A DNA stretch of 10,352 bases from a virus (lineage: Duplodnaviria > Heunggongvirae > Uroviricota > Caudoviricetes): IMG/VR virus record IMGVR_UViG_2695420596_000008, positions 1 through 10,352 of that record; one strand, given 5' to 3'. This document shows positions 8,975 through 9,055 of this stretch, in pieces. The position numbers and the translations under genes are program-made. The stretch's first letter is position 1. Each line of letters begins with the position of its first letter. The notes beneath the pieces were generated by a model, which searched no databases, was not told where the DNA came from, and was given only the letters and a program-made list of their open reading frames with translations.

Positions 8975-9055
8975 CCTCTATTTAGCAAATGGATAAATAT
9001 GCATTTTGATAAATCTTCATTGCGTTTTATTTATCAAAATGGTAAAGTCGCTCTG
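8975..9055. promoter_or_regulatory. oR/pR/pRM region: pR -35 TTGCGT (9020-9025), -10 TAAAGT (9043-9048); operator-like palindromes TTTAGC-N5-GATAAA (8981-8997) and TTTATC-N5-GGTAAA (9030-9046)
   Basis: Inverted-repeat half-sites TTTATC/GATAAA seen on both sides of the immunity region; the 9030-9046 site overlaps the pR -10. Confidence 0.5.

Follow-up and report, generated by a model that had tools for sequence, protein, structure and literature searches.

The operator and early-promoter regions of the Stx1 (Shiga-toxin) phage H-19B, the cI gene of which was sequenced in 1998, are reportedly the subject of a 2001 study by Shi and Friedman (Mol Microbiol 41:585). The corresponding region of phage ST2-8624, deposited as 'immunity region; similar to bacteriophage H19-B', carries seven annotated 17-bp repressor binding sites, OL1 to OL3 on the left and OR0 to OR3 on the right (GQ499358.1). 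Passages of a review attribute four operator sites at OR to H-19B and, in comparison, three OR and two OL sites to phage 933W (PMC8065619, citing Shi & Friedman 2001). The C-terminal domain of the 933W-type repressor has been reported to act without cooperative binding (PMC3202840).

The window, that is, the whole stretch of 10,352 nucleotides that was analysed, comes from a lambdoid prophage, of which it covers the early-left and immunity part. The backbone is lambda/434-like (int, xis, exo, and bet), and no stx gene lies within the window. The gene order from N through pL/oL, a cargo segment, cI, oR, cro, and cII to O is that of H-19B, as is the layout of OR0 to OR3 and OL1 to OL3 (Table 1). 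The predicted pL drives N and the leftward early genes, and the predicted pR drives cro, cII, and O.

Table 1. Genes, predicted promoters and operator sites of the window, in order of position, with the name under which a site is annotated in GQ499358.1.
Feature	Position	Strand	Sequence	Remarks
int	1-1074	minus
xis				in the gene order between int and exo
exo	3488-4168
bet	4165-4950
N-type antiterminator	6748-7092			Pfam N_peptide
pL (predicted)	7239..7211	minus	-35 TTGCCA (7239-7234), 17-bp spacer, -10 TAAAGT (7216-7211)	consensus scan 9/12
OL1	7213-7229		TTTATCGAAATGATAAA	perfect half-sites (0 mismatches); between pL -35 and -10, overlapping -10; annotated OL1
OL2	7238-7254		AATAGCAAAATGATAAA	25 bp from OL1, touching pL -35; annotated OL2
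OL3	7270-7286		AATATCCTGTTGATTAT	weak site, 32 bp from OL2; annotated OL3 (AATATCGTATTGATTCT)
small ORF, 42 aa	7483-7611	minus
small ORF, 120 aa	7627-7989	minus
cI repressor, 234 aa	8258-8962	minus		Pfam Peptidase_S24, E = 3.8e-16; diverged HTH N-terminal domain
cI-cro spacer, 113 bp				carries oR
pRM (candidate)	8969..8997	minus	-35 TTTATC (8997-8992, within OR3 right half), 17-bp spacer, -10 GAGAAT (8974-8969)
OR3	8981-8997		TTTAGCAAATGGATAAA	1 mismatch to TTTATC-N5-GATAAA; annotated OR3
OR2, comparative register	8997-9013		ATATGCATTTTGATAAA	abuts OR3; right half consensus GATAAA, left half conserved but non-consensus
OR2, GenBank register	9005-9021		TTTGATAAATCTTCATT	alternative; annotated OR2, 24 bp after OR3
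pR (predicted)	9020..9048	plus	-35 TTGCGT (9020-9025), 17-bp spacer, TGn extended -10, -10 TAAAGT (9043-9048)
OR1	9030-9046		TTTATCAAAATGGTAAA	1 mismatch; between pR -35 and -10, overlapping -10; annotated OR1
OR0	9048-9064		TCGCTCTGTGTGATAAA	fourth right-hand site, over the predicted pR start; consensus in right half only; annotated 'OR0 repressor binding site' (TTGTTCTGTGTGATAAA)
cro, 77 aa	9076-9309	plus
cII	9448-9744			Pfam Phage_CII
O (start of gene)	9777-10352+

At the nucleotide level, the immunity region matches H-19B, BP-4795, ST2-8624, Stx2a_WGPS9, and dozens of Stx1a phages at ~95% in megablast, and the match is broken only at the cargo between pL and cI, where the window differs from the H-19B group in carrying two small ORFs of unknown function. 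The repressor is identical to H-19B cI (AAD04644.2; record AF034975.3) at 233/234 residues, the single change, N123K, falling outside the N-terminal DNA-binding domain, which is 100% identical. Similarly, 74 of the 77 residues of Cro are those of H-19B Cro (the changes being N25K, T35A, and A48R), and the oR spacer is collinear with that of H-19B (AF034975.3), with 16 substitutions over its 113 bp and none in the consensus half-sites. In comparison with the operators of H-19B, which are shared by BP-4795, ST2-8624, the Stx1a phages, and mEp506, there is no change in OL2, OR3, or OR1 and a change of one spacer base in OL1, and OL3, OR2, and OR0 differ at non-consensus positions only; the OL1-3 and OR0-3 sequences of GQ499358.1 map one-to-one onto the window. 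An H-19B-type repressor DNA-binding domain, the same operators, and a cognate Cro are thus found together. Because the two proteins are near-identical and oR is collinear, the specificity is immH-19B and not a new one. On this evidence, the window is read, with a probability of roughly 93%, as carrying the immunity region of the H-19B group (H-19B, BP-4795, ST2-8624, and mEp506) in a lambda/434-like backbone, with 17-mers of the form TTTAKC-N5-GMTAAA as its operators. Repressor and Cro, as well as the promoters and operators, thus belong to the already known H-19B immunity system, and repressor binding at the 17-mers is taken from the literature and the deposited annotation.

The earlier note on this DNA had proposed a novel immunity specificity with an operator organization that may depart from the tripartite layout of lambda. 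It was correct that the repressor and Cro are not lambda's and that their operators lie at pL and pR, and an undescribed specificity could also draw on a repressor that looks unusual, in that Pfam calls no HTH, and on good palindromes being present at three sites only. However, this proposal has a very slim chance of being right, since the DNA-binding domain is that of H-19B cI, itself the subject of an operator study, the three 17-mers are already annotated in GenBank as OL1, OR3, and OR1 (GQ499358.1), and the repressor N-terminal domain together with oR occurs at ≥90% identity in 216/5426 complete Escherichia coli genomes (~4%), 86 of which carry the window's own variant. The same immunity is also present in mEp506, a non-Stx phage, and strain SLK172 has an immunity region 100% identical to that of the window (7150-9320). 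As for the organization, the departure from a tripartite oR holds insofar as a fourth site, OR0, is added at oR, and fails insofar as both oL and oR have three sites. Exactly three operators per side, as expected of a lambdoid switch, are therefore not what is seen, and the exception is the known H-19B variant.

In its general plan, the locus is like that of lambda: cI and cro diverge around oR, the sites are partially symmetric 17-mers with three to each operator, of which OR1 and OL1 overlap the early promoters, a second multi-site operator (oL) lies at pL upstream of N, the repressor is of the autocleaving S24 type, and pRM is probably leaderless. Unlike in lambda, the half-sites are TTTATC/GATAAA, which are unrelated to lambda's, an extra site, OR0, covers the pR start, OR3 directly adjoins OR2 (with 16 bp between their centres) under the comparative register described below, if that is right, and the repressor ends in a C-terminal domain of the 933W type. 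Since that type of domain reportedly binds non-cooperatively, site occupancy may differ from that in lambda. The C-terminal domain is common to the window and 933W, as the literature also states (PMC3202840), and in both the operator count departs from lambda's three plus three, whereas the N-terminal domain and the operators are different. Klebsiella phages KO-TP1 and vB_Kpn_Chronis and a set of enterobacterial prophages share a homologous N-terminal domain, the six-site layout, its spacings, and the placement of OR1 and OL1 over the -10, but most of them have TTTAGC-N5-GCTAAA where the window has TTTATC-N5-GATAAA, all lack OR0, and in the two Klebsiella phages the C-terminal domain of the repressor is a different one.

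The three 17-bp palindromes singled out in the earlier note are present at 7213-7229 (a perfect copy), 8981-8997, and 9030-9046, and they exceed what chance would give. Allowing ≤2 mismatches to TTTATC-N5-GATAAA, the window has 6 matches against 0.75 expected, a number reached in 0/200 shuffles, and with ≤1 mismatch it has 4, where 300 first-order Markov simulations give an expectation of 0.05; a chance origin is excluded because the matches so far exceed the shuffled and simulated expectation. The TAAAGT -10 hexamers with 17-bp spacing that had been reported for both early promoters are likewise in place, with TTGCCA-17-TAAAGT at pL and TTGCGT-17-TAAAGT at pR, and the overlap of the 7213-7229 palindrome with the pL -10 amounts to 4 bp, the same as that of OR1 at pR, both promoters being consensus predictions. 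It might still be argued that the palindromes are accidents of AT-rich intergenic DNA, or promoter A/T tracts with no protein-specific role, given that the oR spacer has 35% GC against 45% for the whole window and that a 1-mismatch copy elsewhere is evidently fortuitous. This has next to no probability, since the palindromes keep their register, spacing, and half-sites where the flanking DNA of relatives has diverged, change their bases in concert across sites, and have half-sites free of polymorphism among E. coli variants, in addition to their numerical excess. The fortuitous copy, TTTATCATCTCCATAAA at 1477-1493 (1 mismatch, beside a 55-aa ORF), was considered as a distant extra operator and rejected as a chance match: the 221 bp around it match phage 434 at 100% (M60848.1, annotated 'ORF55' and 'terminator'), and because 434 is hetero-immune with an unrelated immunity, the palindrome there is fortuitous.

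The earlier note had recognized two clear sites at oR together with isolated GATAAA half-sites. The half-sites exist, at 7249-7254, 9008-9013, and 9059-9064, but they are not isolated, being the good right halves of OL2, OR2, and OR0, respectively. The layout is therefore one of three sites at oL, and three plus OR0 (four in all) at oR. The left half of OR0 reads TCGCTC in the window, TTGTTC in H-19B, and TTATTC in mEp506, with variation among the E. coli oR variants at 9049-9051, and no counterpart of OR0 is seen in the oR alignment of the non-E. coli relatives. With a left half poorer than that of H-19B, the OR0 of the window may be weaker or non-functional.

Conservation of the sites was followed in species-representative genomes scanned with the repressor N-terminal domain, which yielded 15 loci, 12 of them enterobacterial prophages; prophage relatives were found in Pantoea, Enterobacter, Citrobacter, Atlantibacter, Phytobacter, and Biostraticola, and the two Klebsiella phages came from a blastn search. 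The N-terminal domains of the relatives' repressors are 46-65% identical to that of the window, and Cro is 65-71% identical to the Cro proteins of KO-TP1 and Chronis. The conservation of the palindromes in related immunity regions, named in the earlier note as a way of checking it by motif comparison, is borne out, as 15 diverged relatives keep the six-site layout at fixed spacing. Their oR spacers align gap-free over ~90 columns, with an information content of 1.8-2.0 bits in the half-sites of OR3 and OR1 and in the right half of OR2, 1.5 in the pR -35, and 0.7-0.9 between sites; the two halves of OR3 reach 1.86 and 2.00 bits and those of OR1 1.84 and 1.81. The TTG of the pR -35 and the TAAA(G/C)T of its -10 are kept in the family. 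On the left side, the order OL1, OL2 (+25 bp), OL3 (+32 or +33 bp) recurs in every locus with a recovered oL, with a perfect palindrome at the OL1 position in each (16/17 loci tabulated), an OL2 of the form AATAKC-N5-GMTAAA at the 25-bp spacing, the right half of which co-varies with specificity class, and an OL3 equivalent of the form TTTAKC-N5-GATTWA. Within E. coli, seven distinct oR variants differ at 17/113 intergenic positions; the consensus half-sites, which make up 36 positions, contain 0 of these (hypergeometric p = 7.8e-4), and OR3 and OR1 are invariant among the variants.

Two half-site classes are distinguished in this family. TTTAGC/GCTAAA is found in 11 loci, which Pantoea locus L009, with a hybrid OR1 and its oL not recovered, joins at OR2, and TTTATC/GATAAA is found in the H-19B group and in Pantoea loci L010 and L011. 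At OL1, OL2, OR2, and OR1, the class (G/C or T/A at position 5/13) shifts in concert, whereas the right half of OR3 is always GATAAA and that of OL3 always GATTWA. A single protein pair that reads all of these sites would be expected to make them change together, and the co-variation is supportive and not a statistical proof, because the T/A class arose at most twice. A recognition-helix rule linking P37 plus Q39 to the T/A class was tried; it is broken by Pantoea loci L007-L009 and is kept as a lead only.

It could be that the sites are bound mainly by Cro or a host factor and not by cI, or that the weak sites OR2 (in either register), OL3, and OR0 are not real operators and only OL1, OL2, OR3, and OR1 are functional. 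In each of the three weak sites, just one half resembles the consensus, the non-E. coli relatives lack OR0, the deposited annotations disagree on the position of OR2, and Cro co-evolves with the same loci, so that the co-variation cannot separate it from cI. Against this, the right half of OR2 and the whole of OL3 are conserved and identically placed, OR2 co-varies with the class, and a passage in the H-19B literature counts four right-hand operators (PMC8065619), which together leave this explanation a slim chance. The sites are taken here as functional operators of the H-19B immunity group.

The position of OR2 is the point at which the comparison departs from the database records. The middle element of the family, ATRTGCAAAnTGMTAAA, corresponds to 8997-9013 of the window; its right half has 1.85 bits and switches between GATAAA and GCTAAA together with OR1, OL1, and OL2 in 17/17 loci. 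The annotated register, 9005-9021, puts the GATAAA off-register, has poor half-site matches, and spans the least conserved stretch, 9014-9019 (0.69 bits). In KU238070.1, OR2 is placed ~23 bp after OR3, 1 bp off the OR2 of GQ499358.1, and the oR3 and oR1 features are shifted by 2 bp from the palindromes (2880-2945 in our locus L003; compare 2616-2699 in L002, which is GQ499358.1); this entry annotates neither OR0 nor any oL site. The two records thus differ by 1-2 bp in their site coordinates, and in both, OR2 lies ~8 bp further right than the element conserved across the family. From these alignments, the register 8997-9013 is favoured over 9005-9021, and OR2 is probably mis-registered in the database records; 9005-9021 is kept as an alternative because the annotation may derive from footprint data. 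A wider proposal is tentative and, taken as a whole, somewhat doubtful: that the real OR2 is 8997-9013, abutting OR3 at 16 bp centre to centre on a roughly opposite helix face and, with respect to a leaderless pRM, a short way upstream of the -35, unlike the site annotated at 9005-9021 with its even, lambda-like spacing; and that a single enterobacterial repressor/Cro family switches naturally between two specificities, TTTAGC/GCTAAA and TTTATC/GATAAA, H-19B immunity representing one of the two and H-19B being a mosaic with G-type left halves at OR3 and OL2 that possibly keep those sites weak.

The sites suggest how the switch might work; occlusion of pL and pR, the block by OR0, and relief through S24 cleavage follow from the sequence and established lambdoid biology. 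Each 6-bp half-site, 5 bp from its partner, would receive one helix-turn-helix of a cI dimer, or of Cro in lytic growth, and repressor at OL1 and OR1, between the -35 and -10 and over the -10 of pL and pR, would exclude RNA polymerase. OL2 and OL3 would extend occupancy upstream of pL, and OR0 would be a further block, covering the start of pR. OR2 and OR3 cover the probable leaderless pRM and the DNA immediately upstream of it, so that occupancy of OR2 could activate cI and that of OR3 could repress it; RecA-stimulated self-cleavage of the S24 repressor after SOS induction would lift repression. The candidate pRM is a weak consensus match (7/12), and, in those relatives that were inspected by eye in the oR alignment, an nAnnAT hexamer is equally far from the ATG. 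The predicted start of pRM is the A of the cI ATG (8962), so that its mRNA would be leaderless, like that of lambda. In lambda, OR2 is centred at about -42; with the predicted pRM start, OR2 at 8997-9013 would be centred near -43, with OR3 over the -35. The pRM, this activation geometry, and the OR2 register are inferred.

For the whole repressor, Pfam reports no HTH, the region in question being the N-terminal 80 aa. The N-terminal domain alone scores 17.6 bits against HTH_3, under the 23-bit cut-off, HTH_3 is significant in 9/15 family members (best E = 2e-7), and an N-terminal-domain profile finds PDB chain 5d50_A ('Repressor') at E = 1.7e-7, which we take to be the Rep protein of Salmonella phage SPC32H. 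Judged by these profile matches, the domain is a diverged Cro/C1-type HTH, and the reading that the repressor has no DNA-binding domain is ruled out by the N-terminal-domain and homologue scans; phmmer with the whole repressor against PDB gave spurious pseudoazurin matches only. Among Stx-phage CI proteins, a 'Clade III', 60% identical to Clade IV, has been described as one that 'completely lacks the HTH domain' and is of unknown regulatory function (Fagerlund et al., 2022, PMC8951638). This pattern fits H-19B-type versus 933W-type repressors with a common C-terminal domain, so that the 'missing' HTH may be a Pfam sensitivity artefact; the supplements of that study list BP-4795 and do not give the clades. 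Hundreds of E. coli genomes, O157:H7 included, match the window in this region only at the C-terminal part of cI (8209-8685, at 96-98%), and because so many match this part alone, the autocleavage/oligomerization domain is exchanged as a module among repressors with different DNA-binding domains. As for Cro, residue 35 lies within the probable recognition helix (VGYLDQITYG), and alleles WP_000064148.1 and WP_000064149.1 both circulate in E. coli with identical OR1 and OR3. In the Klebsiella phages, the repressor genes of Chronis (L004, 1857-2651) and KO-TP1 (L005, 1840-2592) are annotated with a start 75-117 nt too far upstream, so that they span the whole of oR and, in Chronis, also overlap the start of cro; the true start is likely the conserved MENKEIRK at 2534 (L004) and 2517 (L005).

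As operators of a known immunity group, the sites are of small value as a discovery. For annotation, the predicted homo-immunity of this prophage with H-19B, BP-4795, and Stx1a phages bears on superinfection and on the acquisition of Stx phages by carrier strains. In addition, the comparative table, with its two half-site classes and conserved six-site layout, is a modest resource on how immunity specificities diverge, and it flags the probable mis-registration of OR2 in database entries.

A few features outside the switch were also seen. The slot between cI and pL, the position of rexAB in lambda, is filled by the two small ORFs, which have no Pfam match and match only the PHROG unknown-function families phrog_12503 and phrog_13858; the pair has its own promoter-like site, TTGGCG-17-TATAGT at 8020..7992 (minus), and a hairpin near 7440-7470. 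In BP-4795 and ST2-8624 the same slot holds a HigB-type toxin and an HTH protein, in mEp506 it holds HicA/HicB/HicC, and because its contents differ in this way it is regarded as a swappable cargo slot. The 42/120-aa pair might be an uncharacterized toxin-antitoxin or exclusion module. Between xis and the genes on the exo side there is a 200-aa ORF with several hydrophobic segments (1720-2322, plus), which runs counter to the early-left genes around it and may be a moron or a membrane protein. The O protein has tandem peptide repeats encoded at 10100-10260, DIPQNEGGSPKMR occurring twice with one variant copy, as is usual for lambdoid O genes, with their embedded ori iterons.
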